A DNA stretch of 64,000 nt, taken from Gemmataceae bacterium (GTDB lineage Bacteria; Planctomycetota; Planctomycetia; Gemmatales; Gemmataceae). The notes beneath the pieces were generated by a model that searched no databases, was not told where the DNA came from, and was given only the letters and a program-made list of their open reading frames with translations. The position numbers were made by a program, and so were the translations under genes. Where the stretch lies: assembly GCA_022616435.1 (NCBI GenBank), contig JAKEET010000045.1, positions 18,013-82,012 on the forward strand. The letters are read 5' to 3'. Shown here piece after piece: positions 3,351 through 60,268 of the stretch. Numbering within the stretch: position 1 is the stretch's first letter; each line of letters starts with the position of its first letter.

Positions 3351-4103
3351 TCAAATGGTGATCACCGTCCCCTGCCGCATCGGCGGCAGCGGCGCCTTGG
3401 CCAGGTCGAGCGTGTCCGGATAATGCGTGATGCGCAGCTTCTTGCGAATCGACGGCCGCACCGTCAACAAGTCGTCAAGATTGGTGTGCATGAACGCCGA
3501 GTTGGCCTCGTGGACGATCAGGTGGGCGTCGGCCAGCCAGTCGATGAGCGTCGGGTCGAACATGGTGTCGGCGCTGTAGCCCAGGCAGCGCTTGGCCGCC
3601 GTGCAACGCAACGCGATCGTCGGCACGCTGTGGATCGTCTTGCGGCACGCGATGCGAAATGGCCCGGCCTTGGTTTCCTCGCCCTCCGGCAACAAGCGCA
3701 GGTCGAAGAAATCATCCAGCGCGCGCTGCCGCGGCAAGGCGCCTGGCTTCTCGATCACCCATTCCATCGACCCTGACAGCACGCCGTTCCACAGCGAGTT
3801 GGCGACGTCGATGTGCGTGTACACGACCAGCGACCGCCCCAGGATGTAGCGGAAGTAATAACCGAGGCACTCCAGGCCGGAGACATGATCGCCGTGCAGA
3901 TGCGTGAGCACGATGGCGTCGATCTTGGAAACGTCGAACGCGACGCCGGCGGCCTGCGCCCCTTCGCGGACGATCTTGCGGATCGGATGCGGGCAATCCA
4001 CCATGAGCCAATGCCCGCCGCTTTCCAGCGCGAAGCACGAGGAGTAGTAGAGGGCCGAAAAGGCGTCGCCCGTGCCCAGACACAACAGTCGCAGATCGCT
4101 CAT
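3351..4103 (-). CDS. MBL-fold metallo-hydrolase (β-lactamase superfamily)
   Basis: MSDLRLLCLGTGDAFSALYYSSCFALESGGHWLMVDCPHPIRK...VLTHLHGDHVSGLE carries the HxHxDH motif. The ATG is the complement of 4101-4103 and overlaps the stop of the upstream cytochrome by 4 nt (ATGA coupling). The longer 469-aa ORF has a non-protein-like Arg/Pro-rich N-extension. Confidence 0.75.
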   Translation of the reverse strand: MSDLRLLCLGTGDAFSALYYSSCFALESGGHWLMVDCPHPIRKIVREGAQAAGVAFDVSKIDAIVLTHLHGDHVSGLECLGYYFRYILGRSLVVYTHIDVANSLWNGVLSGSMEWVIEKPGALPRQRALDDFFDLRLLPEGEETKAGPFRIACRKTIHSVPTIALRCTAAKRCLGYSADTMFDPTLIDWLADAHLIVHEANSAFMHTNLDDLLTVRPSIRKKLRITHYPDTLDLAKAPLPPMRQGTVITI

Positions 4104-6518: not shown

Positions 6519-8747
6519 TTACTGCCGCCCCGCGAAGTTGGCCCAGCTCTTCAACTGCGGGAAATACTCGACCGGATCGACGCGCTGGGCGGCATCGTAC
6601 GGGCAGCAGGCCACGCAGGGCGGATCGTAGTCGTCGGTCAGGCACAGATCGCACTTGTTGGCCACGATCCCCGGCCGCGAGCTGGGCGCGTCCAGGGGCG
6701 ATGTCGGCTGGTACATGTCGATGACGTCGAAGGGGCATTCGCGGGCGCATTGCTGACAGCCGATGCACCGATCGCGATGGATCTGCACCGCCTGGTTTTC
6801 GAGCCAGGTGATGGCGCCCACGGGACAGACCTGCTGGCACGGCGCGTCGAGGCAGTGCAGGCAGGCGCCGGCGACTTCCCAGTGGCCGAACCGCCATTTC
6901 GGATTGGCGCGATGGAAGCGCGGCTGGCCGTCGTGGGCCTCCGCGCAGCCGCGCACGCACTGGTCGCAGCGCGTACACTTGTCCATGTCGATCAAGAGCA
7001 GGTTGCGCGTCAGCATCAGCTTGTCGGCCAGGGCTTGCGGCGGCTCTTGCGGCGGCAGCAGACGGCCGGCGCGCATGTGCTCGTCGCGCACCGACAGGAG
7101 CCGGCGTTCGCGCTGCAGCTTGGCGCCGAGAGCCTGGTACGGTCCGGCGAACAGCGACCGCAGCACGTCGCGATCGAGCCGCAGCAGCGTGGTGCTGCAC
7201 AGCGTCTCCACGGCGGCGGAGCGGACCGGCATCGCGTCGCCTTCCTCCAGGACCGCGGATTCGCCGAAGTACGCGTCGGCCTCCAGGTTGTTCACCATGG
7301 ATTGCCCGCCCGGCAGGTCGAGACTGACCCGGACCATGCCGCTCAGGAGCAGGAACAAGCAATCGGCAGGGTCGCCTTGCTTGAACACGGCCACGCCTTT
7401 CTTGTCGCTCTTCCTGTCCTTCTGTTCCAGGCGGTCGGGTTGCAGAGGCTTGCCGAACTTCTGGTGATACGCCGCCGCGAAGGCTTCCGTGAAGCCGCGA
7501 AATTCCTCGCCGGTCAACGGGAACGGCCGCGGGCTGCTCGCCACGACGCCGGGCCAAGCCGCCTCCAGCAACAAGCGATTGAGCCGGAAGACCTCACAAT
7601 CGTTGAGCGTGTCGCGCCGCTGCAACGCTTGCCGGGACTCGTCGTCGAGCGCCGACGTGGCCCGCTCGTCCGCCGCGGCCAGCAAACGCCTCCGGGTCAG
7701 CGCTCCATTGAGATGTTCGACAATGTGTGTCTTCTCCGCGAAGTCCAGGCGCTCGGCGGGTTCCTTGAGCAGCCACGGCAACGCTTTGACAAGCCGCTTG
7801 CCCAGCCGGGCCGGCCAGCCGGCGCCCGGGTCGCGCAGCGCGGCCAGCAGCCGCGGCCAGTCCAGGACGTCTTCCACGAACACGCGATCGCGAAACAAGC
7901 GGTTCCTGGCCAGCACGCTCGGCAGCGTGCTTCGCACGAACTCCGCCAGCTCGCGCTCGTAAAAGCGCGGGCTCTTCTTGATGATCTCTTCGAGGGCCTT
8001 GCGCTTGATCAGCAGCATCACGCACGGCTTGCCGCCGTCGTCCGGATCGTCGTCCGCGACCAGCGTCGCCGAGCGCGGCTGATTCCAGAGCGTGCCGGTG
8101 ATGCCCATGAAACGATCTTCGAGCGGCTTGATGTTGTTGGCCGCGTCGCGGATGGTGATGGCGGCCCGGGGGGTCGCGGCGGCTTGACCGGCGGCGGCGA
8201 CAAAGGCGCTGCTCGGGTTGGACAGCTCGCGTTCCAGGCGGTGGACCGGCGGCATGCGTCCGTGGAGGGCGCGGGCGACGTGGTTGCGAACGCGCTGGGC
8301 GGCGGCCGCCGGCAACCAATGCTCGGCGGCATCGATCAGCTTCAGCGGAAGGCCGGGGAGCCGGCGGTACAGCGGCGCCAGCCAGCCGAACCAGCCGCGT
8401 CCCGGCGGCGCGTCCTTGGGCCAGGTCGCGGCCTGGCGGAGCACGGCGTTTTCCAGCCGCCGCGCCAGCGGCTTCTCCCAGCAGCCGCGGCCGACCGGCG
8501 CCGCCGGCGGCGCGATGTCGCGGACGCCGACCCGCCCCTGGATGTGCACGGCGGCATAGTCGCTCGTGGTCCCCTTGGCCATGATGACTTCGCCGGCCGT
8601 GTACTGGATCAGGAAGAAGTGGATGCCGCGCTTGGCTTCGCCTTCCTCGTAGAACGACTTGAGAGTGGCGAGCGCCTTGGCGTCGAGACCGGGAATGCCC
8701 TGCAAGTGTTCCTGAATGGTTTGCCAATCCGCCGGGAGTTGTTGCAT
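6519..8747 (-). CDS. fusion protein with two cyclic-nucleotide-binding (cNMP/CAP-type) domains and a C-terminal 4Fe-4S ferredoxin region
   Basis: The N-terminal region (FFLIQYTAGEVIMAKGTTSDYAAVHIQGRVGV) and a second region (VAVFKQGDPADCLFLLLSGMVRVSL...AYFGESAVLE) look like cNMP-binding β-barrels. The C-terminus carries Cys clusters CTRCDQCVRGC, CLHCLDAPCQQVCP, CIGCQQCARECP and CDLCLTDDYDPPCVACCP. The antisense 1149-aa ORF 5568..9017 is rejected. Confidence 0.7.
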   Translation of the reverse strand: MQQLPADWQTIQEHLQGIPGLDAKALATLKSFYEEGEAKRGIHFFLIQYTAGEVIMAKGTTSDYAAVHIQGRVGVRDIAPPAAPVGRGCWEKPLARRLENAVLRQAATWPKDAPPGRGWFGWLAPLYRRLPGLPLKLIDAAEHWLPAAAAQRVRNHVARALHGRMPPVHRLERELSNPSSAFVAAAGQAAATPRAAITIRDAANNIKPLEDRFMGITGTLWNQPRSATLVADDDPDDGGKPCVMLLIKRKALEEIIKKSPRFYERELAEFVRSTLPSVLARNRLFRDRVFVEDVLDWPRLLAALRDPGAGWPARLGKRLVKALPWLLKEPAERLDFAEKTHIVEHLNGALTRRRLLAAADERATSALDDESRQALQRRDTLNDCEVFRLNRLLLEAAWPGVVASSPRPFPLTGEEFRGFTEAFAAAYHQKFGKPLQPDRLEQKDRKSDKKGVAVFKQGDPADCLFLLLSGMVRVSLDLPGGQSMVNNLEADAYFGESAVLEEGDAMPVRSAAVETLCSTTLLRLDRDVLRSLFAGPYQALGAKLQRERRLLSVRDEHMRAGRLLPPQEPPQALADKLMLTRNLLLIDMDKCTRCDQCVRGCAEAHDGQPRFHRANPKWRFGHWEVAGACLHCLDAPCQQVCPVGAITWLENQAVQIHRDRCIGCQQCARECPFDVIDMYQPTSPLDAPSSRPGIVANKCDLCLTDDYDPPCVACCPYDAAQRVDPVEYFPQLKSWANFAGRQ

Positions 8748-8977
8748 GACCGCTACCGCCGCCGCGCCAAGCGATTGGTGAGAGTCGCGGGGTTATCTTG
8801 GCGCGCCGGGGCCGGACAGGCAAGGATGAAAACGACCTCTCCGCGTCGCCAAGATGCGCAAGCAATGCGCGTCGCGCCGGTCAGTCACGACGAAACGCCA
8901 CGGTGGAACATGCCGGATGCTCATTCCTGCTTGACAGGCTCCGATCTGTCGAGTCATCTTAACTCACGGGGCGAGCG

Positions 8978-9052
8978 TCGCGGCGTGAGCGCGACGTGGT
9001 GTTCGAGCAGTTACTAACCCGCACACACGTCGGGCTCACGCCGCGACGCTCG
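8978..9052. repeat. REP-like palindrome family B (GGCGAGCGTCGCGGCGTGAGC … GGGCTCACGCCGCGACGCTCGCC). Related copies occur at 12537-12631 and ~47690-47760
   Basis: Inverted repeat with 21-bp arms and ~40-nt loop in the divergent intergenic region. It overlaps the 5' end of the longest ORF for the next cytochrome, which argues for a later start. Confidence 0.6.
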
Positions 9053-9070
9053 CCGTTGCTTGAGGTGAAC

Positions 9071-12426: not shown

Positions 12427-12536
12427 CGCGATCTCCTGCGTGGAACTCGCGCCGCCGGCGAGCGGCGCGGCGTAAGCCCGACGTGTCAGCATCTCACGAC
12501 GCGCCGGCATCCCACAATCCACGACCGCGTCGCGTC

Positions 12537-12631
12537 CACGGCGGGCTTACGCCGCGCCGCTCGCCTCTTCACGGCGGGCTTACGCCGCGCCGCTCGCCTC
12601 TTCACGGCGGGCTTACGCCGCGCCGCTCGCC
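12537..12631. repeat. tandem direct repeat, 3 x 33 bp (CACGGCGGGCTTACGCCGCGCCGCTCGCCTCTT), REP family B-related. It is not a CRISPR array because the units are adjacent with no spacers
   Basis: The units are identical and adjacent. They are located 3' of the stop of 12640..14559 on the minus strand. The ORF 12483..12692 (HGGLTPRRSPL x3) is a translation artefact of this repeat. Confidence 0.8.
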
Positions 12632-22212: not shown

Positions 22213-22247
22213 TGAGACGTTTTAGGCCGGGTTGATGACGTTTAGCC

Positions 22248-22337
22248 CCGGCTCGAAGAACCGGGGCGGACAAGATCCCGCGCGTGGGATTCAGCCATTG
22301 CCAGCCGCCTGTCCGCCCCGGTTCTTCGAACCGGGGC
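22248..22337. repeat. REP-like palindrome family C (GTTTAGCCCCGG[C/T]TCG[A/C]AGAACCGGGGCGGAC arms, ~34 bp), between convergent cytochrome genes. A related tandem array is at 37199-37290
   Basis: A near-perfect inverted repeat is read directly in the sequence. It acts as a likely bidirectional terminator. Confidence 0.65.
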
Positions 22338-22341
22338 TAAA

Positions 22342-23721
22342 CTATTCGCGCAGGCGGCGAACGATCGAGCGCGGGTCCACATCGCCGCGCGGCGTGGCGT
22401 ACCCGGGCGGCAGGGCGCGCACATCCAGCAACGACTTCAAACGCTCGCCAAGGGCCGTATCCTTCGCCGTCTGGTTCAGCGCGACGAATGCCAGGTAAAG
22501 CTGCTCCGCCTCATCCCAGCTCGTGACGTTGTCCGACATCAGCAGGCCCTGGATTTTCCCAAGCGCGAACGGGCCGCCCCCATCCCAAGCGTTCACCGGG
22601 GCGTGCAACCGCCGCAACTCGACGAGGGCGGCGTCGATCTTCTCCACCGCCACATCCCGCGCCGGCCGCGGCTTCGCCATGATCCGCTTCAGCTCATCGA
22701 GCGCCGGCGTCCCTGTCGCGCCGGCAGCGCCGGCAAGCCAGCGCGGCATCGAGAAGTACCACGTCCCCCACGCCAGCGCGCCCCGGCGACCGAGTGGTCG
22801 CCGCCAGGTTGGCTCCTGCAAATCGTGGTGGCAGGCGGTGCAATCGTATTCCGCGAACTCCGGCCACACCGCAGTCGTGCGGTGCTTCAACAACTCAAGC
22901 GCGGCCGCCGCGCTCACGACCTGGCCGGCCGCCCACAGCTGGTTCTCGTTGCGCGGCCTGGGCTTCCAGTGCGGCGGCAGATTGGCGACGAACGCGCTGG
23001 CCTCGAAGGCCAGCCGTGGATGGCCGGCGGCGATCAGGTCGTGATTGACGTCGCGCACCGGCGCCCCGTTGCCAGGAGGCGCGCCGACGTGACAGCCGGC
23101 GCAAGCCTTCACGAGCGCCGCGGGGTCGCCGAGCGGAACCAGGCCGTGCTCGCGGAATTTTTCCTCGGCCGATTTCGTCTGCCATTCCTTCGTTAGATGC
23201 GCGTCGAGCCAGCGCGGCGCCGTGCCGTGACAGGCTTCGCAGCCGACGCCGGCGGCGCGTTCACGGCGGATCGAGGCGGCGTCCACCGAATCCTGGATCG
23301 GTCCGGACGCGGCCGGTTGCGTGTGGCAGCTCAGACATGCCGCGGCTTCGTGGGCCCCGCGCGGCAAGCCGAGCCGCCTGGCGATCTCCTGGGCGAGCGG
23401 CTCATGCAGCGTCCGGTAGGCGCGGGTGTGCGGATCGTGCTGGACCCACAACGTGTATTCCATCTGCCAGGAAGTCGCGCGCTCGATGGCGTCGAGGCTG
23501 CCGTGACAGGATCGGCCGGCGCACGATGCGGTCCCGGCGAAGGGACTTGACGATGTCGCCGGCGTGAGCCGCGGCGGCGCACCATCGTCCGCCTTCGGCG
23601 CCGCCACGGGCGGCCGGCGCCACCAGACGACGCCCACGATCACAAGGACCATGGCGCCGACGACCACGAGGCCGCGTGATGTCAACATGAGGACTCCGAC
23701 GTCGTTTCGCCAGGCTGGCAT
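22342..23721 (-). CDS. pentaheme cytochrome c, paralog 3 (TM/signal anchored). An alternative start is at M12 (23688)
   Basis: CAGRSCH, CLSCH, CEACH, CAGCH and CTACHH motifs. It shares the AAGHPRL and DCTACHHDL blocks with the two + strand paralogs. The sense-strand ORFs here are Arg/Ala junk. Confidence 0.8.
   Translation of the reverse strand: MPAWRNDVGVLMLTSRGLVVVGAMVLVIVGVVWWRRPPVAAPKADDGAPPRLTPATSSSPFAGTASCAGRSCHGSLDAIERATSWQMEYTLWVQHDPHTRAYRTLHEPLAQEIARRLGLPRGAHEAAACLSCHTQPAASGPIQDSVDAASIRRERAAGVGCEACHGTAPRWLDAHLTKEWQTKSAEEKFREHGLVPLGDPAALVKACAGCHVGAPPGNGAPVRDVNHDLIAAGHPRLAFEASAFVANLPPHWKPRPRNENQLWAAGQVVSAAAALELLKHRTTAVWPEFAEYDCTACHHDLQEPTWRRPLGRRGALAWGTWYFSMPRWLAGAAGATGTPALDELKRIMAKPRPARDVAVEKIDAALVELRRLHAPVNAWDGGGPFALGKIQGLLMSDNVTSWDEAEQLYLAFVALNQTAKDTALGERLKSLLDVRALPPGYATPRGDVDPRSIVRRLRE

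Positions 23722-27031: not shown

Positions 27032-27032
<1 letters not shown>
26993..27032. repeat. REP-like palindrome family A copy (GGGAAAGGGGTCCGTCCCCTTTCCGGATAGCC)
   Basis: Hairpin directly 3' of the kinase stop codon. It is the reverse-orientation variant of the 5588 and 57243 copies. Confidence 0.6.
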
Positions 27033-30682
<3,650 letters not shown>

Positions 30683-31004
30683 CTGATCAGCCCTCTCCGT
30701 TCATCGCGAGGCTTCTATCTTGTCTATCCACTATTTGGGACGAAAGCGGCCTTCGGATCGATTGTGTCAGAGTCGTGGCATGGCCGCAAGGTTGAGTCAG
30801 GACATCTTGTTGGGCGGCTTGCCGTTTAGCGCTCACAGCATCCTGCGAGCGCGAAACGGCAAGCCGATGTCAACTCGCGAACCTTGGAGAATGTGCCGGA
30901 GTCTGCATTCCATGCGAACCGCCCGGCCGGCGGCGCTCGCGGCCCCGCAACGCGGTTGGCGGCGCGCGTTCCGTGAACGGGTTCTAACGACGGCGGTTGG
31001 CAAC

Positions 31005-31076
31005 GCGTGGTTAGCTCATTGGTAGAGCGCTAGGCTCAGGACCTAGAAGTAGTGGGTTCAACTCCCGCACCACGCT
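31005..31076 (+). tRNA. tRNA with anticodon CAG (which would read Leu CUG) but a class-I body with a 5-nt variable loop and U73 discriminator. The identity is atypical
   Basis: Manual fold: acceptor GCGTGGT/ACCACGC, D-arm TAGCTCATTGGTAGAGC, anticodon stem CTAGG/CCTAG with loop CTCAGGA (U33, G37), variable AAGTA, T-arm GTGGG-TTCAACT-CCCGC. CCA is not encoded. Confidence 0.65.
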
Positions 31077-32552: not shown

Positions 32553-32744
32553 CGTAAGAATCACCACGGATTTCACGGTTCACACGGATCATGAAGGACT
32601 CTTCGATCCGTGTGATCCGTGGAATCTGTGGTTTGCCTGGTTTGGTCGCCATCCGTCGTTTTCGCTGGAAATCTGGTTGCGGCCATCGCATTCGGCGGGT
32701 ACACTTCCATTGTCAACTTCAAGCAGCCTGCCTGGGGGGATCAC

Positions 32745-33050
32745 ATGGAACAACGATTCGAAGGCAGCCCGCGCGCCATGATCTACTTGCAGGGGCGGCG
32801 CGTGCACCGGACCGAGGTCTACCACGATTGGGGCCTGCGCCTCCAGTGGGTGATCCGCCGCAACGGCCAGGTGATCGCCACCGTCCCCGCTCGCGCCGAC
32901 GCCAGCTACGAGCACCCCGACGCGGCGCCCGGCAACTACGAGATCGTCTTGCAATCGTGGAAGTACGTCAACTACCGCAAGAACCCGCAAGGCGAATTCA
33001 CCGACAGCCGGTTCATCGATATCTCGAACCAGGTGTCGTACACCGTTTGA
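32745..33050 (+). CDS. small hypothetical protein (~101 aa). The longest ORF starts at 32619
   Basis: The ATG 32745 is preceded by GGGGGGA. Translation is protein-like (MEQRFEGSPRAMIYLQGRRVHRTEVYHDWGLRLQWVIRRNGQ...). Confidence 0.4.
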   Translation: MEQRFEGSPRAMIYLQGRRVHRTEVYHDWGLRLQWVIRRNGQVIATVPARADASYEHPDAAPGNYEIVLQSWKYVNYRKNPQGEFTDSRFIDISNQVSYTV

Positions 33051-33062
33051 ATCCCGCCCGCA

Positions 33063-33120
33063 TTCGCCGCTTGCGGCTTAGCGCTCGCGCCAACCTACCG
33101 CAAACGCTAAGCCGCAAGCG
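33063..33120. repeat. REP-like palindrome family D (CCGCTTGCGGCTTAGCGCTCGCG … CGCTAAGCCGCAAGCGG). Related copies occur at 43491-43544 (inside a CDS) and ~41405-41460
   Basis: 17-bp inverted arms are read directly. It is intergenic between 32745..33050 and the DUF1501 gene. Confidence 0.65.
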
Positions 33121-33153
33121 GCATCACGATTCCTCCGCAAGGAGCGCCTTCCC

Positions 33154-34539
33154 ATGTTGAATATCGGCAACGTCAAGGTTCCGGTGTGCCACGGCCACGG
33201 CTTCAGCCGCCGCAGCTTTTTGCAGGCCGGTACGGCGGGCATGGCCGGCATGGTGTTGCCGAACTTGCTTGGTCTTGGATCGGCCGGCGCCGTCGAATCA
33301 CGCCGCGCCCGCATCAAGAACTGCATCACGATCTTCCTCGTTGGCTCGCCGGGCCACCTCGACACCTGGGACATGAAGCCCGACGCTCCGGAGAACGTGC
33401 GCGGCAAGTTCAAGCCGATCCGCACCAACGTCGCCGGCGTGCAGATCTGCGAGCACTTCCCGCTCATGGCGCGAATGATGAACAAGGTGTCGCTGATCCG
33501 CAGCCTGCACCACCGCACCGGCGCCACCCACGAGAACGGCCAGCGCTGGATGATGACCGGCCACGACTTCAACGCCGACAGCATGAAGCCGCACTGCGGC
33601 AGCGTGGTGTCGCGCATGTTCGGCCAGAAGAGCGAATTGCCGGCCAACGTGGTCCTTCCCGGCCCGATCGGCAACACCGGCGCCGGCCCGCTCCATGGCC
33701 AGACCGCGGCGCACCTCGGCAGCGCTCACGAACCGTTCTTCCTGAACGCCGATCCGGCGGCCCGCGATTTCCGGGTCGGCGATCTGGAAGCGCCCGCGGG
33801 CACGTCGGCCTCACGGCTCGACGCGCGCCGGCAACTGCTCGATCAGCTCGACCAGATTCAACGCCGCACCGAGACGCGCAGCACGCAGATGCACGATAGC
33901 TCCTATGAACGGGCCTTTCGCTTGCTGACATCCCAGCGCGCCAAGGACGCGTTCGATCTGGACAAGGAGCCGCACCGTTTGCGCGATCGCTATGGCCGCA
34001 ATACGTTCGGGCAAAGTTGCCTGATGGCCCGCCGGCTGATCGAGGGCGGCGTCCGCTACGTGACCGTCAATCACTTCGACACGGTCTTCAACCTGACCTG
34101 CTGGGACATGCACGCCGACGGCGGCGGTTTGAACAATACTTATCTCGACTACGAGCGCCACCTGTGCCCGCAGTTCGACTGGGCCTTCACCGCCCTGATC
34201 GAGGACCTGGAACAACGCGGCCTGCTGCAAGAGACGGTCGTCGCCGTGCTGAGCGAGTTCGGCCGCACGCCGCAAGTGAACGGCCGCGGCGGCCGCGACC
34301 ACTACCCGCAGGCCTGGACCAACTTCCTGTGCGGCGGCAACATCCGCGGCGGCCAGGTGGTCGGCGCCACCGACCGCATCGGCTCGCGGCCGATCGACAG
34401 CCCGGTCGAGCCGCCGCAGATCCTGGCCACGATCTACCACGGCATGGGCATCGATCTCGACAACACCATGATGCCCGGCCCCGGCGAACGGCCGATCCGG
34501 CTGGTGGAAGCGGAGCCGATCCGGCAGTTGTTTGTGTGA
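33154..34539 (+). CDS. DUF1501 family protein (sulfatase-like, Tat signal), Planctomycete hallmark
   Basis: Tat motif SRRSFLQAGTAGMAGM and conserved DUF1501 blocks (TIFLVGSPGHLDTWDMKP; RSLHHRTGATHENG; HYPQAWTNFLCGGNIRGGQVVGATD). Confidence 0.85.
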   Translation: MLNIGNVKVPVCHGHGFSRRSFLQAGTAGMAGMVLPNLLGLGSAGAVESRRARIKNCITIFLVGSPGHLDTWDMKPDAPENVRGKFKPIRTNVAGVQICEHFPLMARMMNKVSLIRSLHHRTGATHENGQRWMMTGHDFNADSMKPHCGSVVSRMFGQKSELPANVVLPGPIGNTGAGPLHGQTAAHLGSAHEPFFLNADPAARDFRVGDLEAPAGTSASRLDARRQLLDQLDQIQRRTETRSTQMHDSSYERAFRLLTSQRAKDAFDLDKEPHRLRDRYGRNTFGQSCLMARRLIEGGVRYVTVNHFDTVFNLTCWDMHADGGGLNNTYLDYERHLCPQFDWAFTALIEDLEQRGLLQETVVAVLSEFGRTPQVNGRGGRDHYPQAWTNFLCGGNIRGGQVVGATDRIGSRPIDSPVEPPQILATIYHGMGIDLDNTMMPGPGERPIRLVEAEPIRQLFV

Positions 34540-37198: not shown

Positions 37199-37290
37199 CG
37201 GCATTCGTTTAGCCCCGGTTCGCAGAACCGGGACGGACGGTTCGCAGAACCGGGACGGACGGTTCGCAGAACCGGGGCGGACCGACGACC
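37199..37290. repeat. tandem array of REP family C hairpins (GTTTAGCCCCGGTTCGCAGAACCGGGACGGAC followed by 2 more GGTTCGCAGAACCGGG[A/G]CGGAC units)
   Basis: Each unit is itself a short palindrome (CCCGGTTC-GCA-GAACCGGG). It sits directly after the stop of 34879..37197. Confidence 0.7.
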
Positions 37291-39924: not shown

Positions 39925-41406
39925 ATGTCCATCTCCCTTGTTCATGTTCTGCGGTCAACGGTCCAGCAACGAGCACCGCTTCCTGCGCTCGTGGTCCAAG
40001 GTCGAACCTTGTCATACTCGGAGCTGGACGCCCTGGCGCGCCGCGGCGCCGCGTTGCTGCAAAGTTTGGGTGTCGAACCCGGTGACCGCGTCGTCGTGTG
40101 CACCGCCAACAAGCTGGCGTTCCTCATTGGCCATCTGGCGACGCTGTACGCCGGCGGCATCTCGTTGCCTCTGAACCCACGCTTCACGCGCGAGGAGCTT
40201 CGGTTCTTCCTCGGCGACAGCGGCGCCCGCGTTGCCTTGGTCGATGATTCGGTTCGACCCGTTGTTGATTCACTGCAACCGGAATTGCCGGAGTTGCGCG
40301 CGGTCATTCCCGACGTCGCGATCGTGGACACGCCGCTGGGCGTCTATCGGGAACCGGCCATCGCGGCGAGCGATCCGTGCCTGATCGTCTACAGCTCCGG
40401 CACCACCGGCTGGCCGAAAGGGATCGTGCACACCCACGCCAATGTCGCGTCGAGCCTGGTCGCGCTGCAACGCTGCTGGCGGTTCACGCCCGACGATGTC
40501 GTTCTCAACGTGCTGCCCCTTTTTCACATCCACGGCTTGTCGTTCGCGACCCAGCTCACGCTCATGACCGGCGGCTGCGTGATCCTCGATGACTTCCATC
40601 CGCACGAAACCCTCGAGCGTCTCGCCGACTGCACCATCTTCATGGCGGTACCGACCATCTACTATCGATTCCTGGAAGAGCCGACGTTCCGCGACGCCGC
40701 CCGAACCTGGTCGAAGGTCAGGCTCTTCACGTGCGGCTCGGCGCCGATTCGCGCCGAAGTGCTGCCGGAACTGGAAGCGATCCTCGGCCGGCCGGTCATC
40801 AATCGTTACGGCATGACCGAGGCGTTCGTGATCACCAGCCTGCCGCTCGACGGACCCTGGCCGTGCGGTTCCGTCGGGCTGCCGCTCGACGGCGTCGAAG
40901 TGCGGGTGATGATGGAAGACCGTGCGGCCGAGCCGGGCGAAGTCGGCGCCGTGCAACTGCGCGGGCCGAACCTGTTTCGTGAATACTGGCGGCAGCCCGA
41001 AGCGACGCGCGCCGCCTTCGCCAGCGGCTGGTTCGACACCGGCGATCTCGGCTCGCGCGACGCCGCCGGGTTCCTCACGCTCGTCGGCCGCAAGCACGAT
41101 CTGATCATCACCAGCGGCTTCAACGTCTATCCGCAGGTGGTCGAGCGCGTCATCAACAGTTGCCCCGGCGTGCGCGAGTCGGCCGTGGTGGGCGTTGCCG
41201 ACGCGCGCAAGGGCGAACGCGTGGCCGCCGCCGTCGTCCGCGATGACCAGACGCTCGACGAAGATCAATTGCGCATGTTCTGGAATGAGCGGCTCGTTGA
41301 TTACCAACGGCCCAGGGACATCCTGTTCGTGGATGCACTGCCGCGCAATGCGCTTGGCAAAGTGCTGCGCCGCGCGCTGCGCGATCGGATAGAACAATCG
41401 ACATGA
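39925..41406 (+). CDS. AMP-dependent synthetase/ligase (acyl-CoA synthetase family)
   Basis: YSSGTTGWPKG (AMP-binding motif), YGMTE, GWFDTGD and ...LPRNALGKVLRRAL. Confidence 0.85.
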   Translation: MSISLVHVLRSTVQQRAPLPALVVQGRTLSYSELDALARRGAALLQSLGVEPGDRVVVCTANKLAFLIGHLATLYAGGISLPLNPRFTREELRFFLGDSGARVALVDDSVRPVVDSLQPELPELRAVIPDVAIVDTPLGVYREPAIAASDPCLIVYSSGTTGWPKGIVHTHANVASSLVALQRCWRFTPDDVVLNVLPLFHIHGLSFATQLTLMTGGCVILDDFHPHETLERLADCTIFMAVPTIYYRFLEEPTFRDAARTWSKVRLFTCGSAPIRAEVLPELEAILGRPVINRYGMTEAFVITSLPLDGPWPCGSVGLPLDGVEVRVMMEDRAAEPGEVGAVQLRGPNLFREYWRQPEATRAAFASGWFDTGDLGSRDAAGFLTLVGRKHDLIITSGFNVYPQVVERVINSCPGVRESAVVGVADARKGERVAAAVVRDDQTLDEDQLRMFWNERLVDYQRPRDILFVDALPRNALGKVLRRALRDRIEQST

Positions 41407-41488
41407 CGCCGCTGGCGGCTTGGCGCTCGCGATTCTGGCCGGACGCGCGAGCGCGAAACAGCAAGCGAGCTGACCTTGTGGGATTCTG

Positions 41489-42730
41489 ATGCTGCCCAAA
41501 CCCTGGACCCAGCGCCTCGCCGCCGTGCGAGCGACCGCCGTCAACCGCGTGCTGCAGGAAGCGCGGCAAGTGCAGGCGGAAGGCCGCTCGCTGGTGTCGC
41601 TGATGCGCGGCCAGCCGGATACGCCGACGCCCGGCCACATCGTCGAGGCGGCAATCAAGGCCTTGCGCGACGGCCACACTGGTTATCCGGACAACCAGGG
41701 CGAGCCGATCCTGCGGCAAGCGGTCGCTGCGAAACTGGAGCGCGAGCAGGGATTGAAATACGATCCCGACCGCGAAATCCTGATCACCGACGGCGCCACG
41801 GCCGGCCTGTTCTGCGCCCTGGGAATCTTGCTGCAGCCCGACGACAACGTCCTGTTGCCCGATCCGATTTATGATGCGTACGCTTCGCCGATTGCGCTTT
41901 GGGGAGGCCGCCCCCTGGCTGTTCGCTCCAGAATCCGCGACGGCCGCTTCACGCTGGAGCACGACCTCCTGAAGTCGATCTGCACGCCGCGCTCGCGAGC
42001 GCTTCTCTTGAACACGCCCTGGAACCCGACCGGAACCGTGTTGACGCGCGACGAACTGGCCGCATGCGTCGCATTTGCGGAGCGGGCCGACCTCTACGTC
42101 ATCAGCGACGAAATCTACGAGAACCTGATCTACGACGGGCGGCGGCACGTCTCCCCGGCTGCCATCTCGCCGGAAGCCAGGAAACGCACGCTGATCGTCA
42201 ACAGTCTGTCCAAGACGTATGCCATGACGGGCTGGCGCGTCGGCTATTGCGCGGGGCCGGCCGAGATCATCCAGGCGATGTACCTGGTGCTGCAGCAATT
42301 CAGCCGCGGCCCGGCCACGTTCGTGCAGCACGCGGCGGCCGCGGCGCTGAACGGCGCTCAAGCGTGCGTCCAGGCCATGAGGGCGGAGTATCAAGCGCGT
42401 CGCGATCGCGTGGTGGAAGCGCTGCGCGGCTTGCCGCCCGGGCGCCTGGAGGACGGCTCGGTCGCCAAGACTTGGAACAATGAGCCGCTGGTCCCTGAAG
42501 GAGGCCTCTTTGTGATGCTCGATCTGCGCGGGCTTGGAATGCGGTCCGACGACGTGCGTCGCTTTCTGCTCCGCGAAGCCGGCGTGGTCGTCATCCACGG
42601 CGCCGCCTACGGCGACGGCGGCGAACATACCCTGCGCATTTCGTTCGCGGCTGGCGGCACGGTGCTCGAGCAGGGCCTGCAGCGACTGCGCGAAGGATTA
42701 CTCCGGCTTGCGTCCCGCACGATGCCCTAG
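41489..42730 (+). CDS. class I/II PLP-dependent aminotransferase
   Basis: NSLSKTYAMTGWRVGY (PLP-Lys region). Overall aspartate/aromatic aminotransferase-like layout. Confidence 0.8.
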   Translation: MLPKPWTQRLAAVRATAVNRVLQEARQVQAEGRSLVSLMRGQPDTPTPGHIVEAAIKALRDGHTGYPDNQGEPILRQAVAAKLEREQGLKYDPDREILITDGATAGLFCALGILLQPDDNVLLPDPIYDAYASPIALWGGRPLAVRSRIRDGRFTLEHDLLKSICTPRSRALLLNTPWNPTGTVLTRDELAACVAFAERADLYVISDEIYENLIYDGRRHVSPAAISPEARKRTLIVNSLSKTYAMTGWRVGYCAGPAEIIQAMYLVLQQFSRGPATFVQHAAAAALNGAQACVQAMRAEYQARRDRVVEALRGLPPGRLEDGSVAKTWNNEPLVPEGGLFVMLDLRGLGMRSDDVRRFLLREAGVVVIHGAAYGDGGEHTLRISFAAGGTVLEQGLQRLREGLLRLASRTMP

Positions 42731-42739
42731 CTCCAAATC

Positions 42740-45700
42740 ATGAGTCTCGCGTCCCTGCCGCTGGTCGATGGTCCATCGGCCGCCGATCGGCGATCGGTGG
42801 ATGCCGCCGCGGTGCGGGGCGCCTTGACGTCCGCCGTTTCCGGCGAAGTCCGCTTCGAGCGACTCGATCGCGCCCTGTACTCCACCGACGCCAGCGTCTT
42901 CCAGATCGTACCGCTCGGCGTCGTCATTCCCAAGTCTCGCGCCGACGTGATTGCCACGCTCGAAACCTGCGCCCGCTTCGGCGTGCCGATCACCGCCCGC
43001 GGCGGCGGCACCTCGCAGGCCGGCCAGTGCATCGGCGCCGGCGTCATCCTCGACTTCTCGAAATACCTGAACCGGATTCTCGAAGTGAACCCGGCCGAAC
43101 AGTGGGTGCGCGTCGAGCCCGGCTGCGTACTCGACGATCTCAATCATCATGTGAAACCGCACGGCCTGCTGTTCGCGCCCGACATCTCCACCGCCAACCG
43201 CGCCACCATCGGCGGCATGATCGCCAACAATTCCTCCGGCACGCACTCGCTGATCCACGGCAAGACCATCGATCACCTGCTCGAGCTGACGGTACTGCTC
43301 GCCGACGGCAGCCTCGTTCATTGCCGACCTTTGAACGAAGCAGCGCTTGCGGCGAAGTGCCGGCAGACCGATCTAGAGGGGAGCGGTTATCAGGTGGTTC
43401 GACGATTGGCGACGGAACACGCGGACGAAATCGACCGCCGCTTTCCGAAGATATTGCGCCGCGTTGGGGGGTATAATCTGGATCGCTTCGCCGCTTGCGG
43501 CTTAGCGCTCGCGGTGTCCGACACGAGCGCTAAGCCGCAAGCGGCGGAATTCAACCTTGCCGATCTCTTCGTCGGCGCCGAAGGCACGCTCGGCATCGTC
43601 CTCGAAGCGAAGCTGCGCCTCGTGGAACTTCCCAAAACCAAGGCCCTGCTCGTCGTGCAGTTCGCGGGTTTGCTGGAAGCCCTGGCCGCGACGCCGGCGA
43701 TCTTGACGCATCGTCCCGCCGCCGTCGAAGTCATGGATCGCTTCATCCTCGACTGCACGCAACTCAATCCCGAAGCGAGCCGGCTGCGCGACTTCATCCA
43801 GGGCGATCCGGGCGCGATCCTGATCATCGAGTTCTATGGCGACCAGGCAGCCGAGCTGCCGCCGCGCCTCGAAGCGCTGGAAGCTGACCTCCGTTCCCGC
43901 AACTTCGGCTACCACCACCATCGCGCCGTCGATCCGGCGGCCCAGGCCCGCATCTGGAAGCTGCGCACGCTGGCGCTCGGCCTGTCGATGGCGGAAAAAG
44001 GCGACGCCAAGGCGATCTCGTTCGTCGAAGACACCGCCGTCGATCCGGAGCGGCTGCGCGACTACATCGGAGAGTTCTTGCAAGTCATCGAACGCCATGG
44101 GACCAAGGCCGGCGTCTATGCCCACGCCTCGGTCGGCTGTTTGCACGTCCGGCCCATCATCAATCTGAAAACCGACGACGGCGTCCGCCGCTTCCAAGCG
44201 ATCGCGGATGAAGTCGCCGACCTGGTCCTGAAGTACGGCGGCGCTCTGTCCGGCGAGCACGGCGACGGCCTGGTCCGCAGCCCGTTCCAGGAAAAAATGT
44301 TCGGCCCGATACTGTACCAAGCGTTTCGCGAGATCAAGCGCACGTTCGATCCGCAGAACCTGCTCAACCCCGGCAAGATCGTCGATGCGCCGCCGCTGAC
44401 CGCCAACCTGCGCTACGGGCCTGCGTACGTCACCCCGGACGTGGCGACCACCTTCGACTTCTCGAGCGACGGCGGCCTGACGCGCGCCGCGGAGTTGTGC
44501 GCCGGCATCGGTGAATGCCGCAAGACCCGCGCAGGGACGATGTGCCCTTCGTATCACGCGATCCGCGACGAGCTGCACAGCACCCGCGGCCGGGCCAACA
44601 CGCTGCGGCTGGCGCTCACCGGGCAGCTCGACCTGAACGGCCTGACCGACCCCGCCGTTCATGCCGCCATGGATCTTTGCCTGGAATGCAAAGCGTGCAA
44701 GAGCGAATGCCCGACCAACGTGGACATGGCGCGATTGAAGGCGGAGTTCCTGCACCAGCATCACGCGAAGCACGGCCTGCCCTGGCGAAGCTGGCTGTTC
44801 GGCAATGTTGCCGCGCTCGGGAAATGGGGCTGTCGTCTGACGCCGGTCTCGAACTGGTTGACACGCAATCGTTCTACTCGGTGGCTGAACGACAAGCTGC
44901 TCGGCATCGACCGACGGCGACCGCCGCCGCGGTTTGCATCACGGAAGGACCGGGCCGCCCTTGCGGACTTTCTGTTCACCGCCTGCCAGGACCGCGATCA
45001 GCCGCCCAGGCAAAACGTCGTATTCTTCCCGGACACGTTCGTGCGCTACTACGAACCGGCCGTCGGGCTGGCCGCCTGTCAGCTGCTGGATCAGCTCGGG
45101 TGCGGCATCTACCTCGATTTCGAGCTCGACTGCTGGGACTCGATCCCGACTCCGCCCCTGAGCGATCTGTTCCCGCGTGCGCGCTGCTGCGGCCGGCCGT
45201 ACATCTCCAACGGCATGCTCGATCAGGCAATCCGCTGCGCCAGCGCCAACATCGAATGGCTGTACCCGCTCGCGGCCGAGGGCAATCCCATCGTCGCCTG
45301 CGAGCCGAGCTGCATCTTGACGATCAAGGACGACTACCCTGCCCTGCTGCGCGGCGAGCTGCGCCGGCAAGCCGAGGCGGTCGCGGCGCGATGCGTCACG
45401 TTCGAGGAGTTTGTCGGGGAGCAATTCGCGACAACGGGCCAAACGTTGCAGCCGGGCCCGAAGAAAATCCTCGTGCAGGGTCATTGCCACCAGCGTTCGC
45501 TGGCCGGCATGAGCGCGACGCTTCGGCTACTGCGCCGCATCCCGGGCGCCGAAGTCATCGATCTCGATGCCGGCTGCTGCGGCATGGCCGGGTCGTTCGG
45601 CTACGAGAACGAGCACTACGAGATTTCGCGCCTCGTCGGCGAGCAGCGATTGTTCCCGGCAGTGCGCCAGGCTGATCCGGAGCAGGCTGAGCCGGAGCAG

Positions 45701-45802
45701 GCGATCGTGGCGCCGGGCTTTTCGTGCCGATTGCAAATCGAGCATTTCACGGGACGACAAGCGGTGCATCCGGCGATGTTGTTGCGCACCAGCATGTTAT
45801 GA
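42740..45802 (+). CDS. FAD-linked oxidase (GlcD-like) fused to 4Fe-4S and CCG cysteine-rich (GlcF/GlpC-like) domains, ~1020 aa
   Basis: FAD-binding PCMH region (VIPKSRADVIATLETCARFGVPITARGGGTSQAGQ). 4Fe-4S motif CLECKACKSECP. C-terminal CCG-type repeats (CEPSC...; DAGCCGMAGSFGYE). Confidence 0.8.
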   Translation: MSLASLPLVDGPSAADRRSVDAAAVRGALTSAVSGEVRFERLDRALYSTDASVFQIVPLGVVIPKSRADVIATLETCARFGVPITARGGGTSQAGQCIGAGVILDFSKYLNRILEVNPAEQWVRVEPGCVLDDLNHHVKPHGLLFAPDISTANRATIGGMIANNSSGTHSLIHGKTIDHLLELTVLLADGSLVHCRPLNEAALAAKCRQTDLEGSGYQVVRRLATEHADEIDRRFPKILRRVGGYNLDRFAACGLALAVSDTSAKPQAAEFNLADLFVGAEGTLGIVLEAKLRLVELPKTKALLVVQFAGLLEALAATPAILTHRPAAVEVMDRFILDCTQLNPEASRLRDFIQGDPGAILIIEFYGDQAAELPPRLEALEADLRSRNFGYHHHRAVDPAAQARIWKLRTLALGLSMAEKGDAKAISFVEDTAVDPERLRDYIGEFLQVIERHGTKAGVYAHASVGCLHVRPIINLKTDDGVRRFQAIADEVADLVLKYGGALSGEHGDGLVRSPFQEKMFGPILYQAFREIKRTFDPQNLLNPGKIVDAPPLTANLRYGPAYVTPDVATTFDFSSDGGLTRAAELCAGIGECRKTRAGTMCPSYHAIRDELHSTRGRANTLRLALTGQLDLNGLTDPAVHAAMDLCLECKACKSECPTNVDMARLKAEFLHQHHAKHGLPWRSWLFGNVAALGKWGCRLTPVSNWLTRNRSTRWLNDKLLGIDRRRPPPRFASRKDRAALADFLFTACQDRDQPPRQNVVFFPDTFVRYYEPAVGLAACQLLDQLGCGIYLDFELDCWDSIPTPPLSDLFPRARCCGRPYISNGMLDQAIRCASANIEWLYPLAAEGNPIVACEPSCILTIKDDYPALLRGELRRQAEAVAARCVTFEEFVGEQFATTGQTLQPGPKKILVQGHCHQRSLAGMSATLRLLRRIPGAEVIDLDAGCCGMAGSFGYENEHYEISRLVGEQRLFPAVRQADPEQAEPEQAIVAPGFSCRLQIEHFTGRQAVHPAMLLRTSML
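43491..43544. repeat. 54-bp perfect palindrome of REP family D, inserted in-frame (18 codons, ...FAACGLALAVSDTSAKPQAA...) within the FAD/Fe-S oxidase CDS
   Basis: CCGCTTGCGGCTTAGCGCTC-GCGGTGTCCGACAC-GAGCGCTAAGCCGCAAGCGG. The arms are identical to the intergenic copy at 33063-33120. The CDS frame is preserved. Confidence 0.7.
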
Positions 45803-47588: not shown

Positions 47589-47663
47589 GGTGGGTGTAGC
47601 TCAGCTGGTTAGAGCGTCAGACTGTGGATCTGAATGTCGGGGGTTCGAGTCCCCTCACCCACC
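47589..47663 (+). tRNA. tRNA-His (anticodon GTG) with encoded G-1
   Basis: G-1 + acceptor GTGGGTG/CACCCAC, D-arm TAGCTCAGCTGGTTAGAGC, anticodon loop CTGTGGA, T-arm GGGGG-TTCGAGT-CCCCT, discriminator C. Confidence 0.85.
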
Positions 47664-47933
47664 CTTTGCTCATCCTCGGCAGCCGGCGAGCGTTGAAGCG
47701 TAAGCTCAACGCGCTCGCCTCCACGTCGGGCTTACGCCGCGACGCTCGCCTCCCATTTTTCTGGAAAGTCTGAACAAGAATGGTTATCTTCTGAGGAACT
47801 ACGTGACGCTGCTCGCGTATGCCGAGGTCATTCGCAAGGTCCTGCCCGGAGAACGCCGCCGCGAGGTTGCTTCGGTCAGGCGTCTGACCTCGGAAAGTTG
47901 ATTCCCACCGACGATTCCTTCCTCGAGGACGCC

Positions 47934-50891: not shown

Positions 50892-50976
50892 CATTGGGCG
50901 CCATGCCCACGCAAGTCCGTGGGCATGGCGCCCAAGTCCTTCGAACCTGAAAGCCTGACGGTGACACAGCGCTTAG

Positions 50977-56038: not shown

Positions 56039-57241
56039 ATGTCGTTCTACCGTTTGATCTTCTACCACGCGATGCTCGGCGGCTGGGCCGCGTTCTTCGG
56101 CTGGCTGGTGAGCGAGGTGTTCCTGCTGCGGCGTTCGGGCGACCTGGGCACGTTGCCCGTGTTCTTCACCTCGGCCCTGGTCGGCGCGGCCATCGGCGCC
56201 GGCATCGCGCTGGTCACCGCGGTCGCCAACGGCCATTTCAAGGGCGTTGTCGTCCGATCTGTTTTCTGCCTGGCGGGCGGCTTCGCCGGCGGCGCGATGG
56301 GCGGCCTCATCGGCAACGTCATCTATAGCGTGTTGCCGTATTCGATCGTGCGCGTTCTCGGCTGGATGCTGATGGGGCTGGGGATCGGCGGCGTGGAAGG
56401 CCTGTTCGATCGCTCGGTCAAGAAGATTCGCAACGGCCTGATCGGCGGGGCCATCGGCGGCTTCCTCGGCGGCTTGTGTTTCGATCCCGTGGTCCGCTTC
56501 GTCGGCGGCAACATGTCCGGCCGGGCCATCGCCTTCGTCATCCTCGGCATGTGCATCGGCCTGTTCATCGGGCTGGCGCAGATCATCCTGCGCGAGGCCT
56601 GGCTCACGGTCGAGCAGGGTTTTCGTCCCGGCCGGCAATTCGTGCTCAACATCCCGGTCACCATCCTGGGAACGTCGGAAAAGGCGCAATTGTCGTTCAT
56701 CGCCTATGGCGCGAAAGGGGTCGAGCCGATCCACCTGCGCATCGAGCAGCAACCGGACGGCCATTTTTTGGTGCGCGACAACGGTTCGCGGACCGGCACG
56801 TTCGTCAACGGCCGGCGCGTGCAGGAAGAAGTGCTGCACCACGACGACGTGATCCAGCTGGGCCCGAACCTGGTGCGGTTCCGCGAGGCGGTCCGGCATG
56901 TGTCGGCCGACGGCGGCGCGCGGCGTAGGCCGCAGCCGGCCGTTGCGTTGCCGGAAGCGACGCCGATCATGGCGACACCGCCGCCCGTCCCGGCCCCAGG
57001 GGCGATCAAGTCCGGACCGCCGCCCGTGCCGGCGCCGGCCTCAGGGGCGATCAAGCCGGGGCCGGCGCGTGCGCCGGTGGCGCAGCAAGTAGCGATTCAG
57101 CCTGCGGCCGCCGCGCCGCCGGCGCCCAAGCCGGCGTCGGCTGGGCCGCGCGGCAAGCCGTGCCCCAAATGCGCCAAGCCGGGCACGCCGATCCCAGGGA
57201 CCGGCCACCATCTGTGCATGAGCTGCGATCTGAAGTATTGA
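56039..57241 (+). CDS. membrane protein with N-terminal TM bundle, central FHA domain, Pro-rich linker and C-terminal zinc-ribbon (CPKC...CMSC)
   Basis: FHA-like block GRQFVLNIPVTILGTSEKAQLSFIAYGAKGVEPIHLRIEQQPDGHFLVRDNGSRTGTFVNGRRV. Multiple glycine-zipper TM helices. Confidence 0.7.
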   Translation: MSFYRLIFYHAMLGGWAAFFGWLVSEVFLLRRSGDLGTLPVFFTSALVGAAIGAGIALVTAVANGHFKGVVVRSVFCLAGGFAGGAMGGLIGNVIYSVLPYSIVRVLGWMLMGLGIGGVEGLFDRSVKKIRNGLIGGAIGGFLGGLCFDPVVRFVGGNMSGRAIAFVILGMCIGLFIGLAQIILREAWLTVEQGFRPGRQFVLNIPVTILGTSEKAQLSFIAYGAKGVEPIHLRIEQQPDGHFLVRDNGSRTGTFVNGRRVQEEVLHHDDVIQLGPNLVRFREAVRHVSADGGARRRPQPAVALPEATPIMATPPPVPAPGAIKSGPPPVPAPASGAIKPGPARAPVAQQVAIQPAAAAPPAPKPASAGPRGKPCPKCAKPGTPIPGTGHHLCMSCDLKY

Positions 57242-57242
57242 G

Positions 57243-57292
57243 CGGCGATCCGAAAAGGGGGTCAGACCCCTTTTCGGATCGCCTCTGAAAGG
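57243..57292. repeat. REP-like palindrome family A copy (GATCCGAAAAGGGGGTCAGACCCCTTTTCGGATCGCCTCTGAAAGGATA)
   Basis: Perfect hairpin directly after the FHA-gene stop. It shares its core with the 5588 and 26993 copies. Confidence 0.65.
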
Positions 57293-58466: not shown

Positions 58467-58655
58467 GAGTTGAACCACAGAGACGCGAGGCACAGAGACG
58501 ACAAGATCAGATTCAATCACGAAATTCAATCACGAAAACACGAAAAGACGAAAGAAGTTGTGGAGCTTGACTTGCCCATGCCTATCATTTCGTGATTTCG
58601 TACTGTCGTGTTTTCGTGATTCTGTTTTCTCCGTGCCTCCGTGTCCTGTGGCTCA
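58467..58655. promoter_or_regulatory. AT-richer intergenic region forming a long imperfect inverted repeat, with tandem AATCACGAAA/TTCGTGATT motifs, upstream of the MATE transporter gene
   Basis: Left arm CACAGAGACGCGAGGCACAGAGACGAC...ATTCAATCACGAAATTCAATCACGAAAACACGAAAAGACGAAAG. Right arm ...CATTTCGTGATTTCGTACTGTCGTGTTTTCGTGATTCTG...CCGTGCCTCCGTGTCCTGTG. The centre contains TTGACT. Confidence 0.45.
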
Positions 58656-60175: not shown

Positions 60176-60207
60176 ATGAGCGCGCGTGATCCGCTGCACC
60201 AACCCGA

Positions 60208-60268
60208 AGCGTAAGCGAGGGATTGGTACTCCCCTCGCTTACGCTTCGGGTTGGTGTCCGGTCAACTT
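60208..60268. repeat. perfect 25-bp-arm palindrome (CACCAACCCGAAGCGTAAGCGAGGG-ATTGGTACT-CCCCTCGCTTACGCTTCGGGTTGGTG) 3' of the MATE gene
   Basis: Read directly. A likely terminator/REP element. Confidence 0.7.

Follow-up and report, generated by a model that had tools for sequence, protein, structure and literature searches.

The Rickettsia palindromic elements (RPE-1 to RPE-8) are repeats of about 100-150 bp which add 30-50 residues to proteins and belong to Rickettsiales, with their reduced alpha-proteobacterial genomes; RPE-1 and others were reportedly described by Ogata et al. in 2000 and by Claverie and Ogata in 2003, and to our knowledge they have no known cognate transposase. Repetitive extragenic palindromic (REP) sequences and their inverted doublets (REPINs), the sequences of which usually differ between related species, are as far as we know treated as strictly extragenic, and their system with REP-associated tyrosine transposases (RAYTs) is said to have been described also by Nunvar in 2010 and Ton-Hoang in 2012. 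REP/REPIN elements with RAYTs were treated by Bertels and Rainey (2011, PMC3116915), and GTAG/CGTC REPs located wholly inside ORFs of known proteins by Di Nocera et al. (2013, PMC3733652), who also found that recB of two Xanthomonas species carries different REPs at roughly one position. On palindromic repeats in Planctomycetes, the literature gave REP/RAYT papers of a general kind and a note on TnpA(Y1) of class 3 in these bacteria, and no description of the repeat family reported here, or of intragenic palindromes in Planctomycetota, was found in the searchable literature. The subject of this study is a palindromic element within a 64,000-nucleotide stretch (the window) of contig JAKEET010000045.1 of a Gemmataceae bacterium. 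With a probability of roughly 0.8, it is a REPIN, presumably RAYT-mobilised, which entered the gene of a YdiJ-like dehydrogenase, replaced a native loop, and has been tolerated as about 18 extra residues.

The element had been noticed in a sequence-only reading as a 54-nt palindrome at 43491-43544, the sequence of which (CCGCTTGCGGCTTAGCGCTC-GCGGTGTCCGACAC-GAGCGCTAAGCCGCAAGCGG) was as described, and a repeat search of the window extended it into a perfect palindrome with two arms of 23 nt each (43489-43511 and 43524-43546; 100% complementary) and a 12-nt loop (43512-43523). The 54-nt core corresponds to codons 251-268 of an ORF which was intact over its 1020 aa, in agreement with the same reading, and the encoded peptide with flanking residues is (F)AACGLALAVSDTSAKPQAA(E). 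Folded as RNA, the element reached -55.7 kcal/mol, when dinucleotide shuffles gave -28.4 +/- 3.1 (z = -8.9, 0/200 as good). The Rfam scan of the whole window returned three tRNAs only, with no match at the element, which thus is not a described RNA family.

The 17-nt arm CCGCTTGCGGCTTAGCG had four exact sites in the window, two per element: 33067 and 33105(-) in an intergenic copy, 43491 and 43528(-) in the gene. Six matches were obtained when up to three mismatches were allowed, against 0.58 expected, a number reached by none of 100 shuffles; the additional matches, with 2-3 mismatches, were at 30815 and 41409. The intergenic copy, previously placed at 33063-33120, proved real and agrees with the in-gene element over 24 nt in the left arm and 18 nt in the right one, but its coordinates are 33066-33122. 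Its start is 16 nt past the stop of ORF 32619-33050, and 31 nt separate its end from the ATG of a DUF1501 gene (33154-34539). The window contained a further 15 or so strong palindromes from several families, all intergenic according to a gene model based on GC content at third codon positions (GC3), which leaves 43489-43546 as the sole intragenic one.

Pfam domains FAD_binding_4 (residues 58-195), FAD-oxidase_C (298-547), 4Fe-4S dicluster (ca. 584-662) and CCG were identified in the host protein, which is 100% identical to P0001, annotated as ‘FAD-binding protein [Gemmataceae bacterium]’. Its top NCBIfam match was D-2-hydroxyglutarate dehydrogenase YdiJ with 626 bits against the equivalog cut-off of 1350, a score too low to establish the substrate; judged from the full YdiJ domain set in one polypeptide of ca. 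1000 aa, the protein may be called YdiJ-like. The nearest solved structures were D-lactate dehydrogenase and glycolate oxidase. Codon-position GC marks the host frame as coding (GC3 = 0.82), and the continuous ORF retains all invariant columns of the family alignment. The upstream gene (41489-42730) encodes a class I/II aminotransferase, and this pairing was kept at the orthologous loci, so the compared genes are orthologs. Near the C-terminus of the host protein, a tandem 15-nt duplication at 45677-45703 (CCGGAGCAGGCTGAG CCGGAGCAGGCG) encodes PEQAE-PEQA, where the family consensus is shorter.

In 120 homologs with 66-100% identity, the stretch from GGYNLDxF to FNLAxLFVGSEGTLG ranged from 3 to >45 residues (median 9) and was the sole hypervariable place in that part of the protein. 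Orthologs of 37-56% identity from metagenomes had 7-10 residues in this loop (e.g. EFTPADKPLNL, EFVDPAPFNL), and many Gemmataceae orthologs 3-9 residues, which identifies the segment in the window gene as an insertion, as the sequence-only reading had proposed. The closest homolog (P0002, 85%) was without the element, and the loop of P0006 was LTSQ only. The same 18 residues were not found in the distant orthologs; about 16 of the 120 homologs, at 66-81% identity and all Gemmataceae-like, showed AACG(L/V)A...(K/T)PQA(A) at the loop. The DNA behind these peptides was the same palindrome, perfect or decayed, so that they do not represent a native motif. The native loop residues (4-7) were absent from the window gene, with the element in their place; the element therefore replaced the loop and did not merely interrupt it. 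Accordingly, the element is 18 codons long as had been stated, but compared with the short-loop orthologs the protein is only about 14-17 residues longer at this place.

In the AlphaFold model (94 sequences; mean predicted local distance difference test score, pLDDT, 82.3; predicted template modelling score 0.83), pLDDT was <50 at residues 255-267. Host residues 196-265 were placed by PDB alignment opposite about 9 residues of D-lactate dehydrogenase, indicating that the loop ends a family-specific excursion. The insert is thereby predicted to sit in a peripheral, disordered surface loop. At protein level, the loops of P0014 (AFAAPQAANLA), P0029, P0063 and P0068 resembled partial or complete deletions of a type-1 hairpin leaving AA..PQAA, and may be scars of excision or slippage.

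The distribution of the arm was examined in a 596 Gb collection with one genome per GTDB species, on both strands (2 x 596 Gb). The exact 17-mer was present in at least 116 stretches, and among the matches listed nearly all were from Planctomycetota, including Gemmataceae/Gemmatales, Singulisphaera, Pirellulales, Lacipirellulaceae, Phycisphaerae and Tepidisphaerae. Calculated from the collection size, about 70 chance matches are expected for a random 17-mer, and family statistics were for this reason drawn from two-arm copies only. Single-arm matches in non-Planctomycete metagenome-assembled genomes (MAGs), or in signal-peptide-like coding sequence (AACGLA), were treated as chance or contamination. 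The matches listed contained 27 complete two-arm copies, with a modal length of 54 nt (9/27) equal to that of the in-gene copy. Inner stems of the two-arm copies differed yet remained complementary (CTCG/CGAG, TTCGC/GCGAA, CTCAGCA/TGCTGAG, CAACC/GGTTG). By the GC3-based gene model, 24-25 of the 25 full copies listed from other genomes were intergenic, typically directly before an ATG or directly past a stop. Of the two flanks, one was rich in T and the other in A, or else the flanks varied. Each arm includes the 12-nt mini-palindrome GCCGC-TT-GCGGC, plus TTAGCG, which gives the element the architecture of a REP unit and its inverted doublet, the REPIN. By this architecture, the in-gene element is classified as a REPIN-type doublet of a RAYT-associated REP with the core GCCGCTTGCGGCTTAGCG. 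In Phycisphaerae, the core had another genomic form, namely single arms without an inverted partner in C-rich or CCCCAA-type tracts (L012 1743, 5661 and 7346; L070 71, 197 and 3084; L002, L007, L046 and L094); these are possibly REP singlets.

Candidate transposases were identified by an HUH...Y pattern search over the retrieved loci, which gave two ORFs flanked by the arm (L011 and L033). In L011 (arms at 2717-2733 and 3350-3366), one arm is 25 nt upstream of the RAYT-like ATG and an inverted arm overlaps the stop codon, and in L033 a full hairpin (7293-7343) is 13 nt upstream of the ATG. The TAA stop of the RAYT-like gene in L011 (2731-2733) is inside the downstream arm (CGC TAA GCC GCA AGC GG), the repeat thus supplying the stop. 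The RAYT-like proteins are about 200-218 aa long with the pattern MxQPLVIAHHLIW..WLPNDPRGSGS..MPDHVH..RKHKH..YxEKNP, and match Pfam Y1_Tnp as well as the NCBIfam ‘REP-associated tyrosine transposase’ (REP_Tyr_transpos; 50.6 bits, below the cut-off of 80). Named RayT by JGI, the family comprises about 3000 members. Three further Gemmataceae genes had repeats on both sides. P0305 (L205/L206) is enclosed by complete exact-arm hairpins, 16 nt upstream of the ATG and 8 nt past the stop. P0278 (L208) is from the MAG that also contains the arm loci L015 and L043; its gene lies between two hairpins, the arms of which match the 17-mer exactly or differ from it at one position. At P0341 (L209/L210) the repeat is of the variant arm CCGCTTGCGGCTTCGCG: a full hairpin precedes the ATG, and one inverted arm comes after the stop. 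Arm variants were also found on the flanks of the RAYT-like genes in L202 and L203. Such hairpin-flanked genes represent the REPtron arrangement, and by analogy a cognate RAYT is presumably present in the source organism of the window.

RAYT-like genes flanked by the same REP core were observed in Gemmataceae, Planctomycetaceae and Phycisphaerales, with the exact 17-mer kept and the transposases about 60% identical, a degree of REP conservation which looks unusual. The genes themselves hold an in-frame arm-like sequence at one conserved place, SR(L/S)RLSA, exact in L033 (7746-7762) and with 1-3 mismatches in L011 (2919-2935), L203 (1905-1921) and L208 (1593-1609); a REP lying within the gene of its own transposase is one possibility, an autoregulatory site another. 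RAYT genes or REPIN copies adjoined DUF1501 or PSCyt/PSD1 genes in L208 (PSCyt/PSD1-RAYT-DUF1501), in L205 (DUF1501) and at the intergenic copy in the window, which may be coincidental given the great abundance of both families in Planctomycetes.

The loop carrying the element was occupied in other Gemmataceae orthologs by palindromes of at least seven unrelated families, the present one included, perfect or near-perfect and all in frame (Table 1), and the protein sequence of P0055, in a third clade, had a type-1 insert. Left junctions of the loop palindromes were 0-5 codons past the conserved Phe codon, a spread which favours filtering at a permissive site over a precise target. In the neighbour-joining tree, the clade nearest to the window gene mixed four insert types and the empty site, indicating fast turnover. 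The L171 family was the sole ortholog loop family matching the window, at the two diverged copies, and the other ortholog loop families were absent from the window (14-mer, ≤1 mismatch). Further in-frame palindrome sites in the same gene were at query residues ca. 631 (L123, L197) and ca. 891-894 (L118/L182, L168, L138). At ca. 631, L123 has a second copy of its own type-1 variant in the same AACGVA..TPQAA frame, and L197 another palindrome; the C-terminus of the L118/L182 gene has an additional in-frame palindrome insertion site.

Table 1. Location of the element, related palindromes and associated genes. Coordinates refer to the window unless a locus (L) is named.
Feature	Location	Strand	Description
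Host gene	42740-45802	+	Intact, 1020 aa; YdiJ-like FAD-linked oxidase / 4Fe-4S / CCG-domain dehydrogenase
In-frame palindromic element	43489-43546	.	REPIN-type doublet; read on + as AACGLALAVSDTSAKPQAA
Intergenic copy	33066-33122	.	Same family, exact 17-mer arms
Diverged palindrome	41410-41467	.	Sister family; inner stem GCGCTCGCG/CGCGAGCGC common, outer stem different
Diverged palindrome	30815-30866	.	Sister family as at 41410-41467; CGGCTTGCCGTTTAGCGCTC.../...GAGCGCGAAACGGCAAGCCG
Loop palindrome	L118/L182		25-28 nt arms, CTAGCCCGCAGCGCAAGCAAGGGC
Loop palindrome	L131/L132 and L137		Arm GAGCGGGGGRCGTWAGCCCCCTG
Loop palindrome	L139, decayed in L198		Arm GACTCCCGAAGTCG
Loop palindrome	L161		Arm CTCTTTCTCCCCTCTCCCC
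Loop palindrome	L171		Arm TTTACGTTTCGCGCTCGCTCG
Loop palindrome	L181		34-nt arms
Loop palindrome	L200		Imperfect
Loop palindrome, present family	Window, L119, L121		Variants in L123 and L140, decayed copies in L117 and L197
Hairpins flanking P0305 gene	L205 1111-1184 and 1860-1935		
Hairpins flanking P0278 gene	L208 1145-1186 and 1876-1916		
Repeats flanking P0341 gene	L209 1127-1181 and 1865-1881		Hairpin and arm, respectively

Both diverged palindromes of the window are intergenic: that at 41410-41467 is between an AMP-binding enzyme gene (39925-41406) and the aminotransferase gene, and that at 30815-30866 between the start of a Ser/Thr kinase gene (27032-30682, minus strand) and a tRNA (31005-31076). 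Strong GC-rich palindromes were located at 1430-1538, 8970-9054, 12457-12598, 22240-22342, 32563-32632, 37205-37285, 47685-47750, 50894-50935, 57238-57289, 58528-58621 and 60197-60256. Nearly all intergenic gaps of the window contain one, from unrelated families such as GGCGAGCG..CGTAAGCCC, GTTTAGCCCCGG.. and CACCAACCCGAAGCGTAAGCGAGGG, and the source genome seems saturated with hairpin repeats. Two of the three window tRNA genes have a palindromic repeat at a distance of ca. 20-140 nt (30815-30866 with tRNA 31005-31076, and 47685-47750 with tRNA 47590-47663).

The in-gene copies of the present family allowed a comparison of arm conservation. The elements of L119 and L121 have common junctions and a similar centre (5/9 identical), and thus one insertion shared by descent, and 45 of their 48 arm positions were identical, when the gene background was 75% for all nucleotides and 65% for synonymous third positions (P = 9e-4 and 3e-6 for the arms, respectively). 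The copy of L197 (P0004, 81% of aa identical over the alignment) agrees with the window copy in its junctions and in its length of 20 codons, and 36 of 45 positions were identical between the two; the right arm of L197 is decayed, and the window copy perfect. Arm conservation above the gene background could result from gene conversion, from re-insertion at the same place, or from selection on the hairpin.

The preferred reading, insertion of a tolerated REPIN, would proceed as follows. Two inverted REP copies around a short spacer form the REPIN of 54-58 nt, and a RAYT-type Y1/HUH tyrosine transposase would presumably mobilise the family, the GCCGCTTGCGGC hairpin being the substrate. One copy would have entered the dehydrogenase gene, probably by RAYT-mediated single-strand transposition, displacing the short loop between GGYNLDxF and FNLAxLFVGxEGT. 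The canonical length of 54 nt, a multiple of three, would preserve the frame, and the frame used (GCC GCT TGC GGC TTA GCG ... GCT AAG CCG CAA GCG GCG) escapes the TAG/TAA of the other frames. The insertion site, predicted to be a peripheral disordered loop, would be open to almost any peptide, and survival of the element in the gene is attributed to these three properties together: length, stop-free frame and permissive loop. The ca. 18 extra residues most likely confer no new enzyme function, the peptide being presumably neutral, and the hot spot would reflect selection of permissive sites rather than targeting.

Several results weigh against this scheme. No conserved GTAG/CTAC or CGTC/GACG tag was present in the flanks of the 27 full copies and ca. 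160 arm occurrences. No target-site duplication was seen at the element; the flanking TTC codons were rejected as a 3-bp duplication, both being native Phe codons present in empty-site orthologs. Neither was an empty-site allele seen in the same species, so transposition itself is not demonstrated, and no RAYT gene was found in the 64-kb window from ORFs in gene-free gaps, a six-frame HUH...Y regex, or tblastn with two RAYT proteins. Shared descent of the window and L197 copies would give P of about 0.001-0.008 for 46 unchanged arm bases, and the perfect window arms next to the decayed L197 copy would in that case call for recent re-insertion, gene conversion or hairpin selection, which simple neutral tolerance does not predict.

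Selection may instead keep the hairpin for a role in RNA or DNA, for example by making ribosomes pause after the FAD-binding domain and before the cap domain, as a signal for mRNA processing or stability, or as a binding site for a RAYT-like or host factor. The conserved arms of L119 and L121 around a freely changing centre, the perfect complementarity of the window copy when the apparently orthologous L197 copy has decayed, and the high stability of the hairpin all agree with such a role. However, many orthologs, the closest one (P0002) included, are without the element and have an unrelated palindrome or a short loop, which means that the gene works without any hairpin; the decayed copies of L117 and L197 and the apparent excision scar of P0014 (AFAAPQAA) show the element to be dispensable, and the conserved arms are explained equally well by re-insertion, or by gene conversion with the many copies of the genome as donors. 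We hence consider maintenance for a hairpin role quite unlikely. The related idea that the loop at ca. 250-270, with the sites at ca. 631 and ca. 891, actively attracts or retains REPIN-type hairpins and is more than passively permissive is founded on arms that stay conserved or even perfect in a gene with synonymous sites near saturation, on the recurring junction in separate lineages, and on family-for-family replacement, and is regarded as doubtful.

Entry by homologous or microhomology-mediated recombination or gene conversion, in place of a transposase, would also explain the swaps of palindromes at the loop. It is in line with the replacement of the native loop, with the absence of a target-site duplication, with the different families at the loop within one clade of close relatives, and with the junctions TT(C/T)-GCCGC and GCGGC-AA(A/C), which continue the palindrome in L119, L123 and L140 and fit microhomology. 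The first arrival in a repeat-free loop, however, requires a non-homologous step, the repeat family is tightly linked to RAYT genes, and Y1 transposases of the IS200/IS605 type leave no target duplication in any case, which makes this route an unlikely one. A native fast-evolving loop with a coincidental palindrome, or a MAG assembly artefact at a repeat, is highly improbable. The loop is indeed hypervariable in length and sequence, repeats can misassemble in metagenome bins, and isolated 17-mer matches are expected by chance at the frequency given above, but coincidence would have to produce a 23-nt perfect repeat, 24 + 18 nt common to a second locus, dozens of foreign hairpins and the modal length, and an artefact is opposed by the continuous ORF with its invariant columns and by independent assemblies from other samples with the same element and site (L119, L121).

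Among described systems, the present family resembles REP/REPIN-RAYT: both have short, GC-rich palindromic units which pair up in inverted orientation as a doublet, a long hairpin, many mostly extragenic copies, and copies directly past stops or before starts and on both sides of a gene for a Y1/HUH transposase of ca. 200 aa. The present family differs from described REPs in having no GTAG or CGTC tag (tags according to PMC3733652), on which account membership of the tagged super-families was rejected. Its REP unit is also very short (GCCGC-TT-GCGGC plus TTAGCG), the window copy is intragenic, and, unlike what is usual for REPINs, an exact 17-mer is common to classes of the phylum, from Phycisphaerae to Gemmataceae, when the RAYTs are ca. 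60% identical. Compared with the REPs that Di Nocera et al. found inside genes, this is another super-family, with at least seven unrelated families at one loop and more hot spots at ca. 631 and ca. 891. The analogy with Rickettsia palindromic elements drawn in the sequence-only reading holds for behaviour, i.e. an in-frame palindrome of multiple-of-three length in a conserved, apparently functional gene, a peptide added at a surface loop, and intergenic copies as well. It does not extend to identity: there is no sequence relationship, and the present element, of 54 nt and RAYT-linked, belongs to the large genome of a free-living Planctomycete, with no Rfam match at the site, so RPE membership was rejected. 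Bacterial miniature inverted-repeat transposable elements carrying reading frames (Delihas 2007/2011, PMC3184786; Nezha, ERIC, Correia) are likewise small non-autonomous repeats readable through within genes. Their core is not palindromic and is bordered by terminal inverted repeats, and DDE transposases generate target-site duplications next to them; this class was rejected, because the whole element is a single hairpin without a target-site duplication.

Novel beyond the known intragenic palindromes are the link to a transposase family, the phylum-wide REP core, the recurrent hot-spot loop, and the arms conserved above background. In-frame palindromic repeats in functional genes, known mainly from Rickettsia and from a survey of tagged REPs, are hereby extended to Planctomycetota. 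The locus joins a defined in-gene copy, a RAYT-type transposase family and a natural replicate, in which one loop has received at least seven hairpin families, and suits questions on how hairpins enter coding sequence, on site permissiveness, and on homogenisation versus selection of intragenic copies. Repeat-encoded Planctomycete peptides such as AACGLALA...AKPQAA, RAGGVxPL...APRSP and PLSP..GERG should not be taken as motifs, and in alignments and structure models they make loops look more variable than they are. If active targeting or maintenance were true, Planctomycetota REPINs, together with the RAYT conserved throughout the phylum, would constantly generate diversity in protein loops, or, alternatively, intragenic REPINs would act as cis-regulatory hairpins, a relationship undescribed for REPINs.

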